Source of the DNA: Lacipirellulaceae bacterium
GTDB taxonomy: Bacteria; Planctomycetota; Planctomycetia; Pirellulales; Lacipirellulaceae
Direction of reading: 5' to 3'
Length of the DNA stretch: 29,390 bases
Assembly (NCBI GenBank): GCA_035249585.1
Contig: DATFGJ010000457.1
Coordinates: 1 to 29,390 of the forward strand
Positions within the stretch are counted from its first letter, which is position 1. Each line of letters opens with the position of its first letter. The notes under the pieces were generated by a model. The model made no database searches. It worked only from the letters and a program-made list of their open reading frames with translations, and was not told where the DNA came from. A program made the translations under genes and the position numbers. This document shows, piece after piece, positions 3 to 22,350 of this stretch.

Positions 3-1784
3 CTGCATGACCATGCCATTGCCGGCGTGCGTCGCGCATTGCCCGATGCGAAGGTCGGCGGCCCGGATGCCGCTTACGACGGCCGCTTCATTCGCACCTT
101 TCTCGAGCACTGCGTGCACGGGATTAACTACGCAACGGGCGAAAAAGGCACGCCGCTCGACTTTATCGCCTTCCATGCCAAAGGCGGACCGAGCGTCGTC
201 GATGGGCACGTCCGCATGGGCATCGCCCAACAACTGCGGGCCATCAACAACTCGATGGAGATCGTCGCATCGTTCCCCGAACTCAAGAACACGCCGATCG
301 TCATTGGAGAATCCGACCCGGATGGCTGCGCCGCCTGCGGCGCACAGCTCTATCCGCAAAACAACTATCGCAACGGGATACTGTACGCGAGCTATACCGC
401 CGCCAGTTTCGCCCGCAAGCATGATCTGGCCAGGCGGCACGGCGTGAACCTCGAAGGCGCGCTCACGTGGGCCTTCGAATTTGAAGATCAGCCATATTTC
501 GCCGGATACCGCACGCTGGCCACCAACGGCATCGACAAGCCGGTGCTCAACGTGTTTCGAATGTTCAGCCGCATGCACGGCGAGCGAATCGGCGTCGAAA
601 GCGATCATGCGGTGCCGCTCGAGCGGATCATGCGGCGCGGCGTGCGCGAAAGGCCGGATGTTGCCGCGCTGGCCAGCCGGGATGAAAGCACGTTCGCCGT
701 GATGGTGTGGCACTACCACGATGACGATGTGCCGGGACCGGCGGCCAATGTTGAGCTGACGGTTCGCGGCCTGCCGGATTCGGCCGGCACGCTGCGCATG
801 CGGCACTTTCGCATCGACGAGGAGCACAGCAACTCGTTCACTGTGTGGAAGAAGATGGGATCTCCCCAGGAACCAACGGCGGAACAGTATGCCGAGCTCG
901 AAAAGGCCGGCCAGCTGGCCGAACTTGAAACTGAAAATGTTCAAGCTGATGGAGGCACGGCGAGTGTAAAAATCTCGCTGCCGCGCCAAGCCGTTTCGCT
1001 TCTGGTTTTCGAAGTGCCGGCAGAAGCGGCAGACGCGGAACCGACGTCGGCCAATACCGGCGCGCGCAGGGTCGAGCCCGTGCCGACGGCGATCCGCGAG
1101 AAGTTCGAGCTCGATCCGTTTTACCAGAAGCATGTCGACGCCGGTGGGCTTTCGATTCTCGGCTCCAGTCAAGTCTCCGATGCCGGGCTGTTGGAGGCGG
1201 CCTATTTGATTGATCAGATGCTCATCAATCGCGAAGATCTCAGACAGGAGCTGATCAAGCGGCGCGTGCGGTTTGTCGTCATGGCGCCGACCGAAATGAC
1301 CACCGACGTGCCGGAACAGGCCCACATGGATTCCGAGTATTGGGATCGCCGGGCCCGCGGCCTGGGCGGCCGGATTTGCTCCTGCGGCGAAGAGAACCTG
1401 CTAAACCTGCCTGGCGACCGCTACTCCAACGAGAACATTCTCATTCACGAGTTCTCGCACACGATCCACAATTACGGCTTGCGCCGACTCGACGCCGAAT
1501 TCAATTCGCGATTGAAGGAGCTGTACGAGGACGCCATGGACAAGGGGTTGTGGAAAGACACGTATGCCGCGACCAACCCGGAAGAGTATTGGGCCGAAGG
1601 AGTCCAGTCGTACTTCGACTGCAACGCCTCGCCGCGGCGAGGCGTTCATAACGACATCGACACGCGCGAGGAACTGAAGGAGTACGACCCTGACCTGTTT
1701 GCTCTCATCGACGAGTCGTTCAAAAGCCCGCCCTGGCGCTATGAGCGCTACGACGGGCGAACCGCCATCGCGGCCGGCAACTAG
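3..1784 (+). CDS. GH39-family glycoside hydrolase (beta-xylosidase-like), 5'-truncated, fused to a C-terminal HEXXH zincin-like domain
   Basis: Frame is open from nt 3 (LHDHAIAGVRRALPDAKVGGPD), so the gene starts upstream of the window. GH39-like segments FHAKG, IGESDPDGCAAC, GALTWAFEFE, LATNGIDKPVLNVFRM and end LPRQAVSLL. After an Ala/Pro/Glu linker comes a ~230-aa domain with HEFSH (1446-1460) and EEYWAEG. Confidence 0.85.
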   Translation: MHDHAIAGVRRALPDAKVGGPDAAYDGRFIRTFLEHCVHGINYATGEKGTPLDFIAFHAKGGPSVVDGHVRMGIAQQLRAINNSMEIVASFPELKNTPIVIGESDPDGCAACGAQLYPQNNYRNGILYASYTAASFARKHDLARRHGVNLEGALTWAFEFEDQPYFAGYRTLATNGIDKPVLNVFRMFSRMHGERIGVESDHAVPLERIMRRGVRERPDVAALASRDESTFAVMVWHYHDDDVPGPAANVELTVRGLPDSAGTLRMRHFRIDEEHSNSFTVWKKMGSPQEPTAEQYAELEKAGQLAELETENVQADGGTASVKISLPRQAVSLLVFEVPAEAADAEPTSANTGARRVEPVPTAIREKFELDPFYQKHVDAGGLSILGSSQVSDAGLLEAAYLIDQMLINREDLRQELIKRRVRFVVMAPTEMTTDVPEQAHMDSEYWDRRARGLGGRICSCGEENLLNLPGDRYSNENILIHEFSHTIHNYGLRRLDAEFNSRLKELYEDAMDKGLWKDTYAATNPEEYWAEGVQSYFDCNASPRRGVHNDIDTREELKEYDPDLFALIDESFKSPPWRYERYDGRTAIAAGN

Positions 1785-1943
1785 CGATTGTGGCCGGGTC
1801 TCGAGCTTATGCTGCCACTGAGCGGTCGCAGGTGGCCCCGGCTGTTGTAAGTTCCCCGATAGATACTGGACTTTGCGGCCCCGGTCGATCATCATGCGAG
1901 CATCCAGATTCTTGTGCACAATATACGAAAGCGCGTAATCGTT

Positions 1944-4406
1944 ATGGCAACCAGCTCGTTTCTCCGCGCTGCGGCGCGGGCGGTCCTCCTCGCCGCGTTG
2001 TTTTGGGCAAACTCGGCCTCCGCGAGCAACGAAACTGAATCTGAGCGCAAAACGCGTCCGGCCATTGGCAATGAACTGAGGGCCCAGCAGTCGCCCCAGC
2101 GCCGCGGGCGGCGTTTCGAGCCACGGGGCCTGTACAAGGCCCGTATCGAGCCGCATTGGTTTGCCGAGAACACGCGCTTTTGGTATCGCAATCGGCTCCG
2201 CGCCGGCAAGAAAGAGTTCGTGCTTGTCGACGCCGAGGCCGCCACGCGGGAAAAGGCGTTTGATCATGAGAAGCTCGCTGCCGCATTGTCGGCGGCCGCG
2301 GAAAAGGATTATGAGCCGGACGAGCTGCCGTTTGACGCCGTCGAATTCATCAATGATGGAAAGGCAATCCGCTTTGTAGCCGACGGCTCCCAATGGGAAT
2401 GGGAGCTTGATTCGAGCGAGGCCAAAAAGGTTGGCGACGCGCCCGACGATGAGGATGACGACGACGCGGACGACAATCGATTCGGCCGCGGGCGCCGCCG
2501 CTTCGGCCGTGGCGGGGGCTCCGGGCGCCGGGCTGGCGGCGGGCCTTCGCCCGACGGCAAATGGAACGCGTTCGTGCGCAATCACAATATCTTTCTGCGC
2601 CCTGCCGGCGACGGCGACGACGAGAGCGAAAACTCCAAGCGACTCGAGTTTCAACTCACAACCGACGGCACGGAAAAAGGCCGCTACGGCATGCTGCAAT
2701 GGTCGCCGGATTCCAAGCGACTGGTAGCGTTCCGAATCGAGCCGGGCGACGAAAAGGAGGTCCATCTCATCGAAAGCTCGCCGCGCGGCGGCGGCCGCAC
2801 CAATCTGCGCTCGCGCTCCTACGATCTTCCGGGCGACAAGCTCACGTCCTACGAGCTTAGCGTGTTCGACATTGACGATAAAAAGCAGATCAAGCCCGAC
2901 GTGGAAAAGATCGACCTTCACTTTCCGCGCATCTATTGGAACAAGGACGGCCGCCACTTTGCCTACGAAAAGGTGGATCGCGGACACCAGCGGCTGCGGA
3001 TCATTCGCGTCGATTCGCATTCGGGCGAAGCGTCTGAGATCATCGACGAAAAGACCGAAACGTTTATCTGGACCGCTCACACCGAAAACCTCGATCTCGA
3101 TCGCATCAACTGGCTGCCCGATACCGACGAAGCCGTGTACGTCTCCGAGCGCGACGGCTGGCGCCACCTGTATCTGCTCGATACGAAGGAGGGCGGCGTC
3201 AAGAACCAAATCACGCAGGGCGAATATGTCGTTCGCGGAATTGATCGCATCGACGAGGAGAAACGGCAGATCTGGTTCCATGCCAGCGGCAAGAATTCCG
3301 ACCAGGACCCGTACTTCATGCATTACTACCGCGTGAACTTCGACGGCACGGGCCTCGTGGAGCTCACGGAAGGCGATGGCAACCATTCGCTGCAGTTCTC
3401 GCCGGATAACAAGTACGCCATCGACACGTACAGCCGTGTCGATGCGCCGCCCAGGCATGAGCTTCGCCGGATGGAGGATGGCGAGCTGGTGTGCGCGCTC
3501 GAAGAAGCTGATGCCGAGGAGCTTTTTGCAGACGACGATTACCATCCGCTGGAGGTCTTCGTCGCCAAGGGGCGCGACGGCAAAACGGATATCTGGGGCG
3601 TCATCTGCCGGCCGCGCGACTTCGACCCCAACAAGAAGTATCCGATCCTCGAATCGATCTATGCCGGGCCGCAGGGTTCGTTTGTGCCCAAATCGTTCGG
3701 CGGCGGCAACCGCTACGCACAGATGGCGGACCTCGGCTTCATCGTCGTGCAGATCGACGGCATGGGCACGGCGAATCGCTCGAAGGCGTTTCACGACGTC
3801 TGCTGGCACAACCTCAAGGATGCCGGCTTCCCCGACCGCATCCTGTGGATCAAAGCGGCGGCCGAAAAATATCCGTACATGGATACATCACGCATCGGCA
3901 TTTACGGCGGCTCGGCCGGCGGTCAGAACGCGGCGGCCGCCGTATTGTTCCACCCTGAGTTTTACGACGTCGCCGTCGCCGGCTGCGGCTGCCACGACAA
4001 TCGCATGGACAAGGCTTCGTGGAACGAACAGTGGATGGGCTACCCCGTCGGGCGGCAATACGCCGAGTGCTCGAACATCGATAACGCCCATCGCCTGCAG
4101 GGCAAGCTGATGTTGATCCTCGGCGAGCTGGACGAAAACGTGCCGATCGAGTCGACGCTCCGTTTCGTCGACGCGCTCATCAAAGCTGACAAGGATTTCG
4201 AGTTCGTGTTCGTTCCGGGTGCCGGGCACGGCATGGGCGGCGAATACGGCGGGCGGCGCATGCGCGATTTCTTCGTGCGGCATTTGATCGGCGATGAGCC
4301 GAGCGACCGGAAGGCAGAGGCGGCCGCCGAAGTTGCAGCGACGAGCCCCGACGCCCCCGCGCAATCGCTTCCTGCGAAGGTGTCCGACGGATCGGCTGAG
4401 GATTGA
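1944..4406 (+). CDS. Secreted S9-family serine peptidase (DPP IV-like beta-propeller plus alpha/beta hydrolase)
   Basis: Signal peptide from ATG 1944 (MATSSFLRAAARAVLLAALFWANSASA). Nucleophile motif GIYGGSAGG, Asp in GELDENV, His in GAGHG, and typical IYAGPQG and DGMGTANRSKAF segments. Confidence 0.92.
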   Translation: MATSSFLRAAARAVLLAALFWANSASASNETESERKTRPAIGNELRAQQSPQRRGRRFEPRGLYKARIEPHWFAENTRFWYRNRLRAGKKEFVLVDAEAATREKAFDHEKLAAALSAAAEKDYEPDELPFDAVEFINDGKAIRFVADGSQWEWELDSSEAKKVGDAPDDEDDDDADDNRFGRGRRRFGRGGGSGRRAGGGPSPDGKWNAFVRNHNIFLRPAGDGDDESENSKRLEFQLTTDGTEKGRYGMLQWSPDSKRLVAFRIEPGDEKEVHLIESSPRGGGRTNLRSRSYDLPGDKLTSYELSVFDIDDKKQIKPDVEKIDLHFPRIYWNKDGRHFAYEKVDRGHQRLRIIRVDSHSGEASEIIDEKTETFIWTAHTENLDLDRINWLPDTDEAVYVSERDGWRHLYLLDTKEGGVKNQITQGEYVVRGIDRIDEEKRQIWFHASGKNSDQDPYFMHYYRVNFDGTGLVELTEGDGNHSLQFSPDNKYAIDTYSRVDAPPRHELRRMEDGELVCALEEADAEELFADDDYHPLEVFVAKGRDGKTDIWGVICRPRDFDPNKKYPILESIYAGPQGSFVPKSFGGGNRYAQMADLGFIVVQIDGMGTANRSKAFHDVCWHNLKDAGFPDRILWIKAAAEKYPYMDTSRIGIYGGSAGGQNAAAAVLFHPEFYDVAVAGCGCHDNRMDKASWNEQWMGYPVGRQYAECSNIDNAHRLQGKLMLILGELDENVPIESTLRFVDALIKADKDFEFVFVPGAGHGMGGEYGGRRMRDFFVRHLIGDEPSDRKAEAAAEVAATSPDAPAQSLPAKVSDGSAED

Positions 4407-4586
4407 ATTTCGCCCCACGCAATTCTTTTCTTTTTTCTGGTGAGGCGAAATTCGGCGAATTCCGCTTCGCGCGCTGGCTGCAAGTCGTTTGCTGGTTGCC
4501 AGTTGGCGTGTGGCGGTGAGGCGAAATTGATTGAATTTCGCCTCGGGGGGGTGACAAAATTCGACTCAGGTGAGGCGTTATTCGCC
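4405..4586. repeat. Cluster of GTGAGGCGAAATT-type inverted repeats
   Basis: 4405-4418 pairs with 4440-4453 (13/14). 4518-4528 pairs perfectly with 4534-4544 around a 5-nt loop. Partial copy at 4570-4586. Confidence 0.8.
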
Positions 4587-4965
4587 AGGCACGACTCATC
4601 GCATTTTCTCTATCCTCCGTTTCCGTATAGGTGCGCAGAACTCTTTGGTGTGGGTTTTGCGCTCCTGTCGCGATTTAGACACAGCTTGAATGCGCCGGTC
4701 GGCGCGCAGCGGTAGCGCAGTCAGTCGCAAGAACTGAGGTTGCGGCTAGCGGCTCAGAACAAATTCCACGATTTTCAAAGAACGAATCGCCGGGGCACGA
4801 CGTGTGCACATTCTAGCACACATGGTATACATTTGTCAATCATATTTTCGGCCGGGACGGATGGCGATTGCCAACCACTATTCGGTTAATCCCCGGCGCG
4901 GTACATTTCACGGCGGGCGACAAACGTCTCTTATCTTTGTCCGATGCCTTCGTCTGCGAGCACCT

Positions 4966-5562
4966 ATGTTCGGTCTTCATAGTCCAGTTGCTTGGCTCGC
5001 GGTGTTTGCGGCCGGGCTATCGATCGGCTGCGAAACCGATTCCAGCCCACAACAAGCCATCGCGGCTGAACAGGTCATTTCGGCGGAGATGCCAGAAGCG
5101 GCAAATGAGCGGCACGTTCCATCCGACAAGTTGCGAGGCGCCGGTCGCGCCAATCTCGACTTTTACACGGTGGACCACTACGACGTTGCTCGAAATGCCG
5201 CCGAAGATCTGGCGCTCACCATCACGCGGGCCCAAGCCGAGAAGAAGCACATCCTGGTTCAGGTGGGTGGCGACTGGTGCGGCTGGTGCCATCTCATGAG
5301 TGACTATATCGAAACGAACGACCAGGTGCGCGAAAAGATTCGGCAGAACTATCTAATCATGAAAGTCACCTATGATGGGGACCAGAAAAACGAAGCGTTC
5401 CTTTCGCAGTATCCGGACATACCCGGCTACCCACACTTGTTCGTTTTGGACTGGGACGGCAATCTGTTGCATTCGCAAGGCACGGCGGAACTGGAGGAAG
5501 GACGAGGCTACAACGACAAGGTCTATCTTGAGTTCTTGGACAAATGGAAACCGGCCTCCTAG
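4966..5562 (+). CDS. Exported thioredoxin-fold protein, possibly a lipoprotein
   Basis: GGDWCGWCH CxxC motif and cis-Pro-type GYPHLFVLD segment. Hydrophobic N-terminus ending in IGC from ATG 4966, which is preferred over the ORF-track start at 4804. Confidence 0.85.
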   Translation: MFGLHSPVAWLAVFAAGLSIGCETDSSPQQAIAAEQVISAEMPEAANERHVPSDKLRGAGRANLDFYTVDHYDVARNAAEDLALTITRAQAEKKHILVQVGGDWCGWCHLMSDYIETNDQVREKIRQNYLIMKVTYDGDQKNEAFLSQYPDIPGYPHLFVLDWDGNLLHSQGTAELEEGRGYNDKVYLEFLDKWKPAS

Positions 5563-5664
5563 GAAAGGTTGTGCGACGGATGCTGTCCGTTAGCCGCGGG
5601 GGCCTCTAAGTTTCTCCGGCATCGGGTACGTGGGTGCATCCTTGGTGCGGAAGTTGGGCGGACG

Positions 5665-6041
5665 CTAGTTGGTATTAATGGTATCAAGGAATTTATCAGG
5701 TAAGTGATCACCCCCCAGTACGGCAGCAATGAGCGTCATTGCAATTAACAGAGTGCGGAGACCGAAGGGTTTCGACCACGGAAACCATGGAGCGGCTGCA
5801 CAAAACAGACTCCTGCCCCCACCACCGGCCGTACGTCGTCTCGAAAACGGGGTTGGGGGAGTTGGGGTAATAAATGGCGGCTCCAAACTGACCGCGGTAA
5901 CTGCGAAAATCTATGGTGCGCGACGCCGACACCCACTCGGTGCCTGCTAAAGACCCAATAACTCCGCACCCACAGCGCAACGAGCAGCAGGCACGCCGTC
6001 AGGCTCAGCGCAGTCACGGCGATTCGCAGCTACTTGAGCAT
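5665..6041 (-). pseudogene. Decayed small membrane-protein gene (MLKYLRIAV...WVRSY...LRTLLIAMTL type)
   Basis: ATG CTC AAG TAG CTG CGA ATC GCC GTG puts an in-frame TAG at 6030-6032. The N-terminal TM (TALSLTACLLLVALWVRSYW) and the C-terminal TM (AAAPWFPWSKPFGLRTLLIAMTLIAAVLG) lie in different frames. Family assignment is from recollection of Pirellulales proteins. Confidence 0.6.
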
Positions 6042-6094
6042 GGCGTTCCCGTCCGATAGCAGGCGCTCGCGGTAGGCGTTCGACCGCTGGTAAA

Positions 6095-6304
6095 TTAGTG
6101 TGTGGGAGAATTATTACTCCATGGCTCCCGCAGCATGAGCGCAATCGAGGTGCAAATTATTGCAACTGCCGCCATGAGAACTAGCATCATCGCCAAGCTG
6201 AATCGGCCACGGTTATCCTTGATAATCAGGACACTGATGCCAATCGTGTGCAATGCAACCCAGAAAGCAATATAGGTGACTATCGGAAGTAATTGCCCAT
6301 TCAT
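6095..6304 (-). CDS. Small two-TM hypothetical membrane protein
   Basis: 69 aa with two hydrophobic stretches separated by KDNRGRFSL. GGAG 7 nt upstream of the ATG. Confidence 0.6.
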   Translation of the reverse strand: MNGQLLPIVTYIAFWVALHTIGISVLIIKDNRGRFSLAMMLVLMAAVAIICTSIALMLREPWSNNSPTH

Positions 6305-6330
6305 GCTCCTATCCTACCGCGCCGCGCACG

Positions 6331-6353
6331 AAAAGCCCGCCACGTGGGCGGGC
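6331..6353 (-). terminator. Probable intrinsic terminator downstream of the MetX-like gene
   Basis: 7-bp GC stem GCCCGCC/GGCGGGC with a 5-nt loop, followed by TTTT on the minus strand. Confidence 0.6.
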
Positions 6354-6428
6354 ACTATCCCCTAGTCGGGGCGCGCGTGAAGATGCACCACCACCTGGCA
6401 CAGAATCGTCACGCCGCGTTCTTAGCGG

Positions 6429-7520
6429 TCAGCGCGATGGATCGGTGCGCTCCAAGAACTCGCTCAAGAAATGCTTCCAGACGGCAGCAACCGTGTGCGT
6501 TCCGTGTCCCTGGGTCTGGTCGCTGAGCGGCAGGAGGATCGCTCGACCGCCGGGCACCCGCGAAATCTCGCGCTCCAGGATGCCCAGCTCCGGCGGGTTA
6601 ATCAGGTCGTCGGCCGAATTGATGGCCAGCAGCGGCGCGCGGATTTTTTCCAGGCCCGGCGCGGGATCGTAGTCGTGCGATGCCTCAAAGGCGTAAAGCA
6701 TGTCGTTGGCGTCGGCTGTCGCGAGCCGCTCATCTACGTACCGATCTAAGGCCTCGTCGGCTGCAGCCAAGGTCGGCGATTCGGCGAGCCGCCGCACGGG
6801 ATTGCTCGACATCACGTACATCATCGCGAGGGCCGTGCGCAAGCTGCGAGGCTGCGCCATGTAATTACCATTCTGCCACTGGGGATCGGTGCGAATCGCG
6901 TCGATAATGATCCGCCGCCAAACGCGGTTGCGGCCGGAGATTTGCGCGGGGACACATGCCATGGGCATGAGCGCGTCCATGAAGTCCGGATACATTTGGC
7001 CCCACAGCCACGCGTGCATCCCGCCCATCGAAGTGCCCATCACCAGCCGCAGGTGGTTCACGCCCAGGCCCTCAGTGAGCAGCCGATGCTGGGCCGCGAC
7101 CATGTCGCGATATCCGTATCGGGGAAATTGGCCGCGCAGGCCGTCACTCGGCTTGGTCGACTTTCCATGGCCGATGTTGTCCGGCAGGACGACATAATAT
7201 CGTGTGGCGTCCAGCGGCTGGCCGGGTCCAAAAAGTTCCTCGGCAAATTCCGGCCGCAGAAACTGTGCGCTCGAACCGGTCGTGCCATGCAGGATCAAGA
7301 TCGCGTTGCGCACAACGCCTTGTTCGTCGCGCTCGGGCTGCCCCAAGGTGAGGTATTGCATTCGCAGCTCCGGCAGTGATTCGCCCGAGCCGAACTTAAA
7401 GTTGCGGAGCACGAAGTTGCCTGACCGCGGCGCAGGGAATTCCGCGGCAAGGAGCGCGGACGGCAGCATCGCAAGAGCTAGCGCGGCGACAATCGGCTTA
7501 TTTGAGGCTCTCTTGTGCAT
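6429..7520 (-). CDS. Secreted alpha/beta hydrolase of the homoserine O-acetyltransferase-like (MetX-like) family
   Basis: LILHGTTGS, PDNIGHG, nucleophile elbow GTSMGGMH, INSADDLINP, HGTHT. N-terminal signal peptide (PIVAALALAMLPSALLA). Confidence 0.85.
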   Translation of the reverse strand: MHKRASNKPIVAALALAMLPSALLAAEFPAPRSGNFVLRNFKFGSGESLPELRMQYLTLGQPERDEQGVVRNAILILHGTTGSSAQFLRPEFAEELFGPGQPLDATRYYVVLPDNIGHGKSTKPSDGLRGQFPRYGYRDMVAAQHRLLTEGLGVNHLRLVMGTSMGGMHAWLWGQMYPDFMDALMPMACVPAQISGRNRVWRRIIIDAIRTDPQWQNGNYMAQPRSLRTALAMMYVMSSNPVRRLAESPTLAAADEALDRYVDERLATADANDMLYAFEASHDYDPAPGLEKIRAPLLAINSADDLINPPELGILEREISRVPGGRAILLPLSDQTQGHGTHTVAAVWKHFLSEFLERTDPSR

Positions 7521-7550
7521 CCGTATTTAGCCAGAGGGTTGAATATTGAC

Positions 7551-7709
7551 GGCGGGCGACGGATGCGCGACTTCGTCGTGCGGCACTTGCCTGGCACCGA
7601 GTCGCCTGACCGCAAAGCACCCGGATCGGCACATATTGCCGAGAGCAGGGCCCAGTCTACGACGCCAACTCCACCGGATAAAGTTTCTGACGGATCCACC
7701 AAAAACTAA
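7551..7709 (+). pseudogene. Orphan diverged copy of the 3' end of the S9 peptidase gene
   Basis: Colinear with 4248-4406 (both 159 bp, no indel). GGRRMRDFVVRHL...DRKA...KVSDGS; 27/52 identical residues by manual alignment. Confidence 0.85.
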
Positions 7710-7719
7710 TGGCGCGTAA

Positions 7720-8136
7720 TTACGCTGACAGTAGCCGCTTAAAGCCTGCTTGCTCGAAATCGCGGTCGCTGGTGAATGCTTCTGTGATGCCTCGATCCTG
7801 CATTACAATGAAACTCGCACAATCCACGAGGCCCCAGGTCTTGTCGGCGTATCGTCGATAGCGATCGACTGCTCTAGCCATCAATGCTTGATCCACAATG
7901 ACGATGTCAACGACTGGACTTTGCCAAAGCTGAGCTACGGTGTCTGCGAAGCCATTTCTGGCGCGCGACCGGGCAAGGCCGTTGCCTGTTTCGGCAATGA
8001 CCCAATCGGTCAATACAACTCTGAAGCCGCTTTCGCCGAGATCGAGCCAGATTTTGTTGGCAGCTTCGTGCAAATACTCAGTCGCATTCAGTAGCGGGAT
8101 CCAACCGTTTGTGTCGAGAAACACACTACGGGACAT
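7720..8136 (-). CDS. vapC: PIN-domain (VapC-type) toxin
   Basis: Acidic PIN motifs VFLDTN, VIAET, LVDCASF, FTSDRDFEQAG. Overlaps the upstream antitoxin-like gene by 11 nt. Confidence 0.9.
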   Translation of the reverse strand: MSRSVFLDTNGWIPLLNATEYLHEAANKIWLDLGESGFRVVLTDWVIAETGNGLARSRARNGFADTVAQLWQSPVVDIVIVDQALMARAVDRYRRYADKTWGLVDCASFIVMQDRGITEAFTSDRDFEQAGFKRLLSA

Positions 8137-8377
8137 CTTTAGCCTTCGGATGACCGTACAGGTAATGATTGATGTTGACGCCCAAATCCGGTATGCCGGT
8201 ATCCTCAGCCAACTCGCCCATTCGGAACACCGGATCTAATTGACTTTTGTCAATCGTCGCTTTCTTGGGTTCCGATGGCTGCGAAAGTAGCTCGACCTTT
8301 ACGGCCGCTCCCTCCGGCAATTGAATACCGTTCTCTAACACGACTACCCCGTTATGAACGGTGCCTTCGTAGACCAT
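8126..8377 (-). CDS. Putative antitoxin (AF2212/DUF104-like beta-rich N-terminus)
   Basis: MVYEGTVHNGVVVLENGIQLPEGAAVKVEL pattern, GGAGGA Shine-Dalgarno before ATG 8377, and position directly upstream of the PIN gene. Confidence 0.75.
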   Translation of the reverse strand: MVYEGTVHNGVVVLENGIQLPEGAAVKVELLSQPSEPKKATIDKSQLDPVFRMGELAEDTGIPDLGVNINHYLYGHPKAKDVP

Positions 8378-8444
8378 AGATTCCTCCGCTGCTGACAATT
8401 GTACTCCGCGGTCGGAGAGTTACAAACCGCAGCTCTGGTCCGCT

Positions 8445-20665: not shown

Positions 20666-22258
20666 CTATTGATTGTCGCGTTGTGCTGGCTCGAAGCGCC
20701 AATCGACGTGGCCGCCGTAGGCCATTGTCTCGTGCACGACGTCGTACAACTCGGCGTCGTATTTTTGCAGCGCGTTGCGCGTAGTGATTGGAAAATCGGC
20801 GTCGTTGGGGGCTGCTTCCTGCCCTGCGGCGTCAAAGTACGCCAGCACGCCGGCGCACCAGTAGTCGGCGCTGCTTTGGACGGCACCGGTGCCTTTCCAT
20901 TTGCCTTTTTCAATCGCGGCTTTGAACAGTTCGTCGACCTTTGCTCCGAACCGCTCATCGAGCCGCTCGACGCGCAGCTCGTATTGCTGCACGTTGCGGC
21001 CTCGGTTGCTGAAATCGGGATCGGCTGGCCGGGTGCCAGTAACTTGATACAGGGCGTCAGCGAAGGCCCGAATTACCTGGTTGTTGCCTACGCCGGGATC
21101 GCGCGGATCGCCCAGTACATTTTCCTCGCCGACCACGAGCAGCTTGGTCTCCGGTGAATAGTCAAACGTTCGAGCAAGGCGGTCGACATCTTTGCCGTTG
21201 GCGTCTTTGAACTCGGGCAAATCGGCCAAGCTTTCTTCATGGCCGAGCACGACAAGCTTCACGCCGTCGGCAATAAGCGGCTTAAGCACGTCATGCCGGT
21301 AGGCGAACATCTTGCGGATCGTGTCGTTGGCCTTGATAAGCGCCTCATCGCTTGCTTCGCGCCCGAGCACCGTGAATTCGCGGGCCCATGTGAACTTCGT
21401 GTAATAAGGATCAATTTTGAACTTCGCAGGCGGCGCCATGACATTCGGCAGCTTCTGGACCCAGCTGTATCGCCAATCTTGCTCCGGTGCCAATCGAAAG
21501 ATCGACCGACAAAGCTCGTAACCTTCCGGATCGTAAGCTTTGAGCTGCTCGCGGTTGGCCACGGGCCCGTGGTTCCAGTTGTTGACGCGGTTGCAATCGA
21601 AATAAGCCTGGCCGATTTCGGCCCAATACTCGCCCGGGTTGCTGCCCGCATACGCGTTCTTGTACAGGCCTTTTTCGATCGCATTTCGGTAGGCCGCGTT
21701 TCGGCGGTCGCTCCAATCGGGGTCGATCGAGCGCAGCGCCCCGTCGATCGTGTGGCAGAATTCATGCACGCCGATGCTTTCGTCATCATACCTGTCGAGT
21801 GGCAGGCTAAGCAGGTTCTCCTCGCCGAAGCTTGTGGGCCTGCCGCCAGTGCCGCGCACGCGCTCATTCAAGTAATCGGGGTTGCGCGCGTTGCGGTACT
21901 CGGGCATGTCTGTGTACAGCTGGTCCTTGCCGATGATGATGAGATACATCTCGTTCTCTTTCATCGCGTCGACAATGTCGGGCCGGCCGGCCAGCATGTG
22001 GCTTACGATCTCGTGCGTGCGCACAAGTGCCCGGTCGTCGACCTCGCCGGCGGCGACGACGGGCATTCCATCGACGTCGACGTATTTTTTGTAAAAATCG
22101 CGGGCCGCGTCGCGGTCCCGGCTGCGCACCATTGCGAAGAACGATTCGGGCGGCGGCGAAATCACTTTCGGCTCGTCGGAGGCGCGCGCCATCGATGGAC
22201 CAAAGAACACTGCCGCAGCGACGGCGACAAAAATGCTGTTTCGAGTCACGAATGTCAT
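20666..22258 (-). CDS. Secreted protein with two tandem zincin-like domains (first has HEXXH, second is degenerate)
   Basis: Signal peptide ending MARA. Domain 1: GEENLL, HEFCH (21752-21766), EYWAE. Domain 2: GEENVL, with RAFAD and DYWCAG at the equivalent positions. Confidence 0.8.
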   Translation of the reverse strand: MTFVTRNSIFVAVAAAVFFGPSMARASDEPKVISPPPESFFAMVRSRDRDAARDFYKKYVDVDGMPVVAAGEVDDRALVRTHEIVSHMLAGRPDIVDAMKENEMYLIIIGKDQLYTDMPEYRNARNPDYLNERVRGTGGRPTSFGEENLLSLPLDRYDDESIGVHEFCHTIDGALRSIDPDWSDRRNAAYRNAIEKGLYKNAYAGSNPGEYWAEIGQAYFDCNRVNNWNHGPVANREQLKAYDPEGYELCRSIFRLAPEQDWRYSWVQKLPNVMAPPAKFKIDPYYTKFTWAREFTVLGREASDEALIKANDTIRKMFAYRHDVLKPLIADGVKLVVLGHEESLADLPEFKDANGKDVDRLARTFDYSPETKLLVVGEENVLGDPRDPGVGNNQVIRAFADALYQVTGTRPADPDFSNRGRNVQQYELRVERLDERFGAKVDELFKAAIEKGKWKGTGAVQSSADYWCAGVLAYFDAAGQEAAPNDADFPITTRNALQKYDAELYDVVHETMAYGGHVDWRFEPAQRDNQ

Positions 22259-22350
22259 GGTTCGACTCTGAGTACAAGGATGTCGTGTCATTGGCAGCGG
22301 CGGCCCGTAGGATCGCTGGCATTCATTCCATCAAAACGCCGCCCCTGGCG

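Follow-up and report, generated by a model that had tools for sequence, protein, structure and literature searches.

A GH39 glycosidase fused to a predicted lethal factor/PPEP-like zinc peptidase domain in a planctomycetal contig

The locus and the fused gene

The window analysed here is the whole contig DATFGJ010000457.1 (C457), 29,390 nucleotides (nt) from a Lacipirellulaceae bacterium whose metagenome-assembled genome (GCA_035249585.1) consists of 726 contigs and is 77% complete. It opens with a gene for a glycosidase of family GH39 that continues through a linker into a zinc peptidase domain ("zincin") resembling anthrax lethal factor (LF) and the Pro-Pro endopeptidases (PPEPs). A sequence-only reading had placed a GH39 part and an HExxH-bearing domain on one chain, and this architecture is borne out: the Pfam family Glyco_hydro_39 (PF01229) matches residues 2-303, and the linker, HEFSH and EEYWAEG follow at the positions given here.

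3..1784, plus strand: secreted GH39-linker-zincin gene, truncated at the 5' end (open reading frame; the full-length orthologues P0010, P0015, P0021 and P0039 carry signal peptides)
3..1013, plus strand: C-terminal part of the GH39 barrel and beta-sandwich, ending in LPRQAVSLLVFE (Pfam PF01229, E 2e-29)
978-1013, plus strand: LPRQAVSLLVFE, the end of the GH39 part (motif position)
1014..1085, plus strand: flexible Ala/Pro/Glu/Thr/Ser linker of about 25 residues (length kept and sequence variable in 15 orthologues)
1086..1760, plus strand: M34-like gluzincin domain with LF/PPEP fold, about 230 residues (family profile, AlphaFold2 model, Foldseek)
1350..1403, plus strand: RARGLGG...GEENLL, predicted edge-strand region (invariant columns in the family alignment A1; strand modelled at domain residues 104-108)
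1446..1460, plus strand: HEFSH with His482, Glu483 and His486 (conservation, model helix, alignment to LF and PPEP-1)
1563..1601, plus strand: Y521-x6-E528-YWAE532, predicted oxyanion Tyr and third zinc ligand (conservation; alignment to LF)
1581-1601, plus strand: EEYWAEG (motif position)
1914..4406, plus strand: secreted S9B DPP-IV gene, probable start ATG 1944 (Pfam DPPIV_N and Peptidase_S9)
20666..22291, minus strand: paralogue gene with signal peptide, one intact and one degenerate zincin copy (in a GH127/GH51/SSF arabinoside locus)

The contig begins within the open reading frame, whose stop codon lies at 1782-1784, so that it contains 593 of about 821 codons, with about 228 N-terminal ones outside. 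The GH39 part is incomplete because the contig ends and not because the gene is short, as the 90% identical orthologue P0010 is 228 residues longer at its N-terminus. A search for the lost 5' end in the window's own genome did not recover it. The Pfam match covers positions 177-455 of the 472 in the profile, i.e. the C-terminal two thirds of GH39, and a scan of the encoded protein against NCBIfam gave no match.

The remaining part can be read in P0010, which possesses a signal peptide and the WNE acid/base motif. Its nearest solved relatives are GH39 beta-xylosidases (e.g. 1px8, E 1e-34), and its WNEA corresponds in the alignment to WNEP of XynB; the acid/base Glu falls outside the window contig. 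The assignment to GH39 is based on the PF01229 match together with the GH-A acid/base motif, the latter read in P0010. The probable nucleophile is the Glu of IGESD (nt 303-326), placed by position alone, with the HMMER alignment being shifted there. P0010 has the WNE motif and the C-terminal beta-sandwich in common with XynB from Thermoanaerobacterium (1px8) and Geobacillus (2bs9). In contrast, these beta-xylosidases are intracellular and stand-alone, whereas the window protein is secreted and bears a peptidase. Family GH39 also includes alpha-L-iduronidases and glycosidases acting on side chains of arabinogalactan proteins. Run X6, a plant-associated metatranscriptome, contains a 269-nt contig that agrees with the GH39 part at window positions 687-955 except for two differences; this contig hints at transcription of the gene or of a near relative, with DNA carry-over being possible.

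The fusion is not unique to this assembly. The zincin part was searched against proteins of comparable total length, leading to 2,583 proteins; among the 120 matches listed, at least 16 carry GH39, most of them 820-840 residues long and originating from JGI, NCBI and ENA. Four GH39-zincin orthologues were examined in full, and all of them possess a signal peptide and a complete GH39 domain with WNE. Across 15 orthologues, which stem from independent metagenomes, the identity to the window amounts to 59-93% in GH39, 78-91% in the zincin, the part with the strongest conservation, and 19-88% in the linker, whose length is kept. Two constrained domains joined by a drifting linker therefore argue for a genuine two-domain protein.

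When 120 zincin domains were placed in a maximum-likelihood tree, those fused to GH39 grouped in a single clade (SH-aLRT 98), which indicates one fusion event followed by vertical descent. In G105, a member of another family of the same order, a GH39 orthologue with 67% identity stops exactly at the GH39 boundary without a zincin and is adjoined by a convergent gene; GH39 thus existed first and acquired the zincin later. The junction itself, which the sequence-only reading had singled out at nt ~1000-1080, is bridged by a contig of the public rhizosphere run X2 that covers nt 946-1129 without any difference, and a second X2 contig reaches 431 nt beyond the window start. This run may be the assembly's own source, and the match is weak when taken alone, yet consistent. 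Although the window stems from so fragmented a genome, the chance that a chimeric assembly or the loss of a stop codon has produced the fusion is practically negligible and we reject it in view of the same in-frame linker in 15 independent full-length orthologues, the single clade and the bridging contig.

Two genomes of the same genus contain copies that appear disrupted. One (G083:C25:190674-192927, L008) retains both halves with five TGA and one TAG codon inside the match; the other (G087:C3:863833-865553, L007) shows GH39 fragments spread over three frames, with no zincin behind them. Gene decay and assembly errors are both compatible with these copies.

Fold and predicted active site of the zincin domain

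That the C-terminal domain is a gluzincin of the LF/PPEP type is in our view nearly certain, with regard to structure as well as homology, and here the sequence-only reading is upheld. An AlphaFold2 model of the domain, built on the family alignment (mean pLDDT 95.5, pTM 0.92), is predicted to consist of an alpha/beta N-terminal half with an edge strand and a helical C-terminal half, as is known from M34, PPEP and LF folds. All of the 25 best matches in a Foldseek search of the PDB belong to M34 (PPEP-3, PPEP-2, Zmp1/PPEP-1, LF), with E-values of 5.5e-7 to 5e-3, a probability of 1.00, TM-scores of 0.5-0.67 and 16-19% identity; below them follow unrelated gluzincins with TM < 0.4. PPEP-2 is the best fold match among the Swiss-Prot entries of AlphaFold DB.

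If sequences instead of folds are compared, a single-sequence search against the PDB yields best matches that are all M34 but of which none is significant (E 0.4-1). The family profile, which matches the window at nt 1077-1748 (E 6e-105), finds LF with E 0.009, and 14 of the 15 PDB matches listed (E up to 10) belong to LF or PPEPs; HExxH, the Tyr and the Glu after it line up in these alignments. The Pfam model ATLF (PF07737) matches residues 475-570 with E 1.7e-4 and 21.8 bits, which is below its gathering score of 27.4, so that the sequence model leaves the window protein outside M34/ATLF; a relative, P0003, scores 41.1 bits. As fold and active site agree with M34 and the Pfam threshold is not reached, we therefore regard the domain as a distant sister of M34 and not as a core member.

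In an alignment of 45 diverse family members (A1), HEFxH, Tyr167 and Glu174-Tyr-Trp-Ala-Glu178 (domain numbering) are at least 90% conserved, and R98 and G99 (RxRGLGG), E110 and N111 (GEENLL) and D118 are invariant. HEFSH occupies residues 482-486, inside helix 125-142 of the model (domain numbering), and aligns with HEFGH of LF and HETAH of PPEP-1. Tyr521 and Glu528 (TYAATNPEEYWAEG) align with SYGRTNEAEFFAEA of LF (Y-x6-E-FFAE). The catalytic set of PPEP-3 comprises His153, Glu154 and His157, the oxyanion Tyr190 and the ligand Glu197 (PMC12828418), and its spacing of Glu seven residues after Tyr is also present in the window protein. From these alignments the zinc is predicted to be bound by His482, His486 and Glu528, with Glu483 activating the water and Tyr521 stabilising the oxyanion. 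The distal third ligand proposed earlier stands in so far as it is a Glu in EEYWAEG, seven residues after Tyr521; it is, however, Glu528 in front of YWAE and not the Glu of "AE".

Pro-Pro endopeptidases (EC 3.4.24.89) cut between two prolines, a specificity enforced by a diverting loop and by a Trp or Tyr in the S-loop. GLGG of the family falls on GLGG of PPEP-1, and YWD...GLGG on TWDD...GLGG, which contains the S-loop Trp103 of PPEP-1, both in HMMER alignments that are sub-threshold (E about 1). The loop before HExxH comprises 25 residues versus 23 in PPEP-1, and the Trp aligned to the S-loop is less than 90% conserved in A1.

A comparison with known enzymes places the PPEPs nearest in structure. 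PPEP-1 (Zmp1, C. difficile), PPEP-2 and PPEP-3 have in common with the window domain that both are compact secreted single-domain zincins of about 200-230 residues, and they share the edge strand in the alpha/beta N-terminal half, the HExxH helix and an oxyanion Tyr that is followed after seven residues by the ligand Glu. No other structures match better (E 5.5e-7, TM 0.54-0.67), yet the identity is only 16-18%, and the aromatic residue at the S-loop position corresponds in the sub-threshold alignment just mentioned. Unlike the PPEPs, the window family possesses invariant motifs of its own (RxRG, GEEN, D-x-Y) and a C-terminal YDP...WRY extension, and its partners on the chain are glycosidases or exopeptidases instead of cell-wall anchors. 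With domain IV of LF (ATLF, PF07737) the family shares HEFxH, Y-x6-E-(F/Y)(F/W)-AE and the fold, and LF is the best match from profile to sequence. The pairing of an active with a degenerate copy, known from LF, also occurs in the paralogue at 20666-22291. LF differs as a toxin of 776 residues and four domains that is delivered by protective antigen and specific for mitogen-activated protein kinase kinases; the window protein is without such domains. MtfA (Peptidase_M90, PF06167) is another gluzincin that resembles LF, and some family members give a weak match to its Pfam model (P0179, E 4e-5), but MtfA is absent among the 50 best PDB fold matches of the zincin model. MtfA is a cytoplasmic protein.

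Neighbouring genes, exchange of partners and proposed function

The S9 peptidase that had been noted directly after the fused gene is an S9B DPP-IV gene, located at 1914-4406 on the plus strand, 130 nt downstream of the stop codon (PF00930, E 7e-45; PF00326, E 1e-48). Its longest open reading frame begins at GTG 1914, but translation more likely starts at ATG 1944, the first codon of the signal peptide (MATSSFLRAAARAVLLAALFWANSASA). In the interval from the GH39-zincin stop to the DPP-IV start neither a promoter-like site nor a convincing terminator was found; three terminator-like matches all lie inside the region coding for the DPP-IV signal peptide.

The same set of genes appears in relatives, partly as fusions. 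Over 777 residues the window DPP-IV shares 60% identity with the corresponding half of P0045, a zincin-DPP-IV fusion whose N-terminal zincin is 71% identical to the window zincin, and P0080 has the same arrangement (at 53%). On the P0010 contig (L011) genes for GH31, GH39-zincin and DPP-IV follow each other in this order with gaps of 15 and 24 nt. The P0020 contig displays the order of the window, GH39-zincin and DPP-IV, and then FG-GAP and TPR genes. P0048 is a GH31-zincin fusion, its GH31 being 70% identical to that of L011, and the start of a DPP-IV gene follows. In one zincin clade the domain thus stands behind GH39 or GH31, at their C-terminus, or in front of DPP-IV, at its N-terminus. 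In the sense of a Rosetta-stone argument, one clade joined to three neighbours of one operon suggests that the four activities act together, and we consider this an unusually clear and testable functional hint.

A GH31 gene may also precede the fused gene in the window's own genome. Contig C576 (G000:C576:1-1863, L013) ends inside a GH31 gene, of which it holds the 5' end, 89% identical to the one upstream of P0010, and this GH31 is preceded by the C-terminus of a protein of ~1,680 residues with FG-GAP, ASPIC-UnbV and TPR domains. C576 and the window are probably adjacent; since C576 ends in the orthologous GH31, about 2.4 kb between them would simply be unassembled. On the other side, we compared window positions 4407-8444 with the P0020 contig, where an FG-GAP gene stands directly after DPP-IV; compared with that contig, the thioredoxin-like and alpha/beta-hydrolase genes of the window (about 4.8-7.5 kb) thus form an insertion. 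As a lead only, a gene of the DHDPS family (PF00701) lies near the GH39-zincin gene on the P0021 and P0039 contigs. The DHDPS family includes pyrroline-4-hydroxy-2-carboxylate deaminase of hydroxyproline catabolism.

The zincin domain had been seen to recur in a sugar locus of the window, and it does so twice in the gene at 20666-22291 (minus strand). The first copy is 39% identical to the window zincin (E 8e-51) and contains HEFCH and EYWAE; the second, 31% identical (E 2e-30), is degenerate and without HExxH. These two genes are the only zincin-bearing ones in the window's incomplete genome. The paralogue is surrounded by a GH127 beta-L-arabinofuranosidase, a GH51-like arabinofuranosidase and a sugar symporter (SSF), a content that fits plant hydroxyproline-rich glycoproteins as a substrate class.

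The partners of the zincin were surveyed in 50 diverse multidomain representatives. S9B DPP-IV occurs in 5-6 of them, a VHL-beta-like domain in 5 (best E 1.6e-27), sulfatase in 3 and cyclophilin in 2, along with the anchoring or surface modules FlgD_ig, Por_Secre_tail, Big_1, dockerin and LRR. To these the 120 proteins listed from the length-restricted search add M24 fused with AMP_N (aminopeptidase P), M61 aminopeptidase, gamma-glutamyltranspeptidase and BNR propellers. Proline bonds are the target of DPP-IV, aminopeptidase P and cyclophilin, and in eukaryotes the VHL beta domain is a binder of hydroxyproline. The proline-linked partners together with the PPEP-like fold make proline-directed cleavage the leading hypothesis.

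We therefore arrive at the following picture. The gene encodes a Sec-exported two-enzyme protein, consisting of a retaining GH39 glycosidase of the beta-xylosidase-like branch, a linker and a predicted zinc endopeptidase of M34 fold. The peptidase is a mobile module, attached to the GH39, the GH31 or the DPP-IV of a conserved operon GH31, GH39-zincin, DPP-IV. The glycosidases would strip sugars from glycopeptides, the zincin would cut these internally, and DPP-IV would trim the resulting X-Pro N-termini. Most likely this would take place outside the cell or in the periplasm and serve the breakdown of glycosylated and probably proline-rich peptides in soil and rhizosphere. Signal peptides are present on the orthologues and on the DPP-IV neighbour, and the runs that hold the window sequence are rhizosphere, soil and plant metagenomes. 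The analysis shows the architecture and its conservation, the fold, the catalytic motifs and the pattern of fusions and operon order; enzymatic activity, the cooperation of the enzymes, a proline preference and the natural substrate are what we infer for this system; the idea of a glycoprotein or glycopeptide substrate draws on the gene fusions and the operon order. Altogether it seems to us reasonably probable that the zincin is an active secreted endopeptidase, possibly proline-directed, which works with its tethered and adjacent glycosidases and with DPP-IV on glycopeptides. Were this confirmed, the poorly understood breakdown of glycoproteins rich in proline and hydroxyproline by soil microbes would gain a new enzyme class, and proline-directed proteases of possible use in glycoproteomics could come from it.

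While proposing this one must keep in mind a number of observations that speak against it. The similarity to M34 is weak, with 16-19% identity and an ATLF score below the gathering score. The grounds for a proline preference are limited to the fusion partners and the sub-threshold alignment of the S-loop Trp. Many partners are unrelated to proline (BNR/sialidase-like, M61, gamma-glutamyltranspeptidase, sulfatase, dockerin, Ig-like, LRR), and they are frequently switched on the zincin tree, with at least seven changes for BNR and at least five for M61. DPP-IV is absent beside the GH39-zincin genes of P0021 and P0039. Around stand-alone zincin genes in seven other genomes of the phylum we found no DPP-IV or glycosidase neighbours; the genes present there are RmuC, DUF6288, integrase, DUF1501/PSD1, DAO, SIMPL, TPR and Rce1-like ones, and the operon link is therefore valid for this clade and not for the whole family. 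The two apparently disrupted copies in relatives of the same genus suggest that the gene is dispensable. A search of the accessible literature found no publication on the zincin family or on a GH39-peptidase fusion, and no characterised member.

Several of these points would be expected if the zincin were a secreted endopeptidase of broad or non-proline specificity, a general add-on that feeds the attached exo-hydrolase, with no glycoprotein-specific meaning of the GH39 fusion. The very diverse and often exchanged partners, the non-enzymatic surface and anchor modules among them and the lack of conserved neighbours around the stand-alone genes agree with such a role. We nevertheless take it to be unlikely, if a serious contender, because partners linked to proline recur (DPP-IV, aminopeptidase P, cyclophilin, VHL-beta-like), the nearest structural relatives are the strictly Pro-Pro-specific PPEPs, and the operon pairs two glycosidases with peptidases.

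A processing of the cell's own surface proteins appears improbable. It would be in agreement with the characterised PPEPs, which cleave endogenous cell-surface adhesins (PMC8610288), and with the large FG-GAP/ASPIC-UnbV/TPR proteins conserved beside the GH31 and GH39-zincin genes. When self-substrates were looked for among the window genes, however, none was found with Pro-rich or PPXP-type linker tracts; the zincin moreover sits on one chain with catabolic enzymes, and its fusion to an exo-glycosidase or exopeptidase suits nutrient acquisition better. Least probable among the functional alternatives, and by a clear distance from being plausible, is a domain that hydrolyses another bond in a zinc-dependent manner or merely binds on a zincin scaffold: the family does contain degenerate copies that lack HExxH (the second one in the gene at 20666-22291, P0131, P0257) and the family-specific invariant GEEN, D and Y have no known role, but all four catalytic positions are intact here and in at least 90% of the 45 aligned members, and the zincin is more conserved than any other part of the fusion protein.

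Size and spread of the zincin family

The endopeptidase proposed here belongs to a family that extends far beyond the fused gene. An exhaustive HMMER search of 1.84 billion cluster representatives, with clusters defined at 50% identity, resulted in 3,469 clusters at E <= 1e-3 and 736 at E <= 1e-30, across which the zincin forms a sharply bounded module of about 230 residues. Atlas clusters of the family are mostly annotated as "hypothetical protein", have no common Pfam family and stem from Planctomycetota, Bacteroidota and Verrucomicrobiota. Within the phylum the zincin is present in 16 of the 81 genomes sampled, usually in one copy.

A survey published in 2021 reported PPEP homologues in Clostridiales and Bacillales only (PMC8610288). 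The window family, in contrast, occurs in Planctomycetota, Verrucomicrobiota, Bacteroidota and some eukaryotes. To our knowledge, what is known of M34 peptidases is almost confined to toxins of Firmicutes and adhesin-releasing PPEPs. We rate the domain as an M34-fold peptidase in a new and very large subfamily with a new architectural role. It would represent a much larger environmental sister family of M34, distributed over several bacterial phyla as well as some marine animals and protists, that has no Pfam model of its own.

A conserved module of ~130 residues stands right after the zincin in a large subfamily; in P0179 residues 270-397 reach the Pfam threshold for VHL, and homologous stretches are found in P0153, P0221, P0229, P0178, P0237, P0167, P0213, P0246, P0256 and P0200. 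This VHL-beta-like module may serve the recognition of proline or hydroxyproline in bacteria. A bolder proposal, which we put forward tentatively and hold to be possible with the balance against it, is that the family constitutes a large unrecognised sister of M34 whose endopeptidases are directed at proline or hydroxyproline in glycosylated proteins of the rhizosphere, e.g. plant extensins and arabinogalactan proteins, and have repeatedly been welded to glycosidases and X-Pro exopeptidases from one pathway into single-chain "disassembly lines" in which the VHL-beta-like partner would be the bacterial hydroxyproline-recognition module.

The eukaryotic occurrences include P0049, assigned to Branchiostoma lanceolatum by NCBI and UniRef, where the zincin stands together with Ig, ShK and EGF domains. 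The zincin is found in P0049 with 38-44% identity and also in the AlphaFold DB clusters A0A7D9E0X7, A0A6P4Y9N8, A0A1S3H7Y4 and A0A7S4PPH9. The automatic names of these AlphaFold DB entries suggest eukaryotes ("Uncharacterized protein LOC...", "Gamete and mating-type specific A-like", one with a VHL beta domain).

A last observation concerns annotation. In JGI data the label "alpha-glucosidase" is attached to zincin-only proteins of 329-540 residues (P0005, P0018, P0026, P0050, P0059, P0063, P0086, P0114), probably by annotation transfer from GH31-zincin fusions such as P0048, and the comparison of these proteins with the family thereby exposes an error in the current naming.

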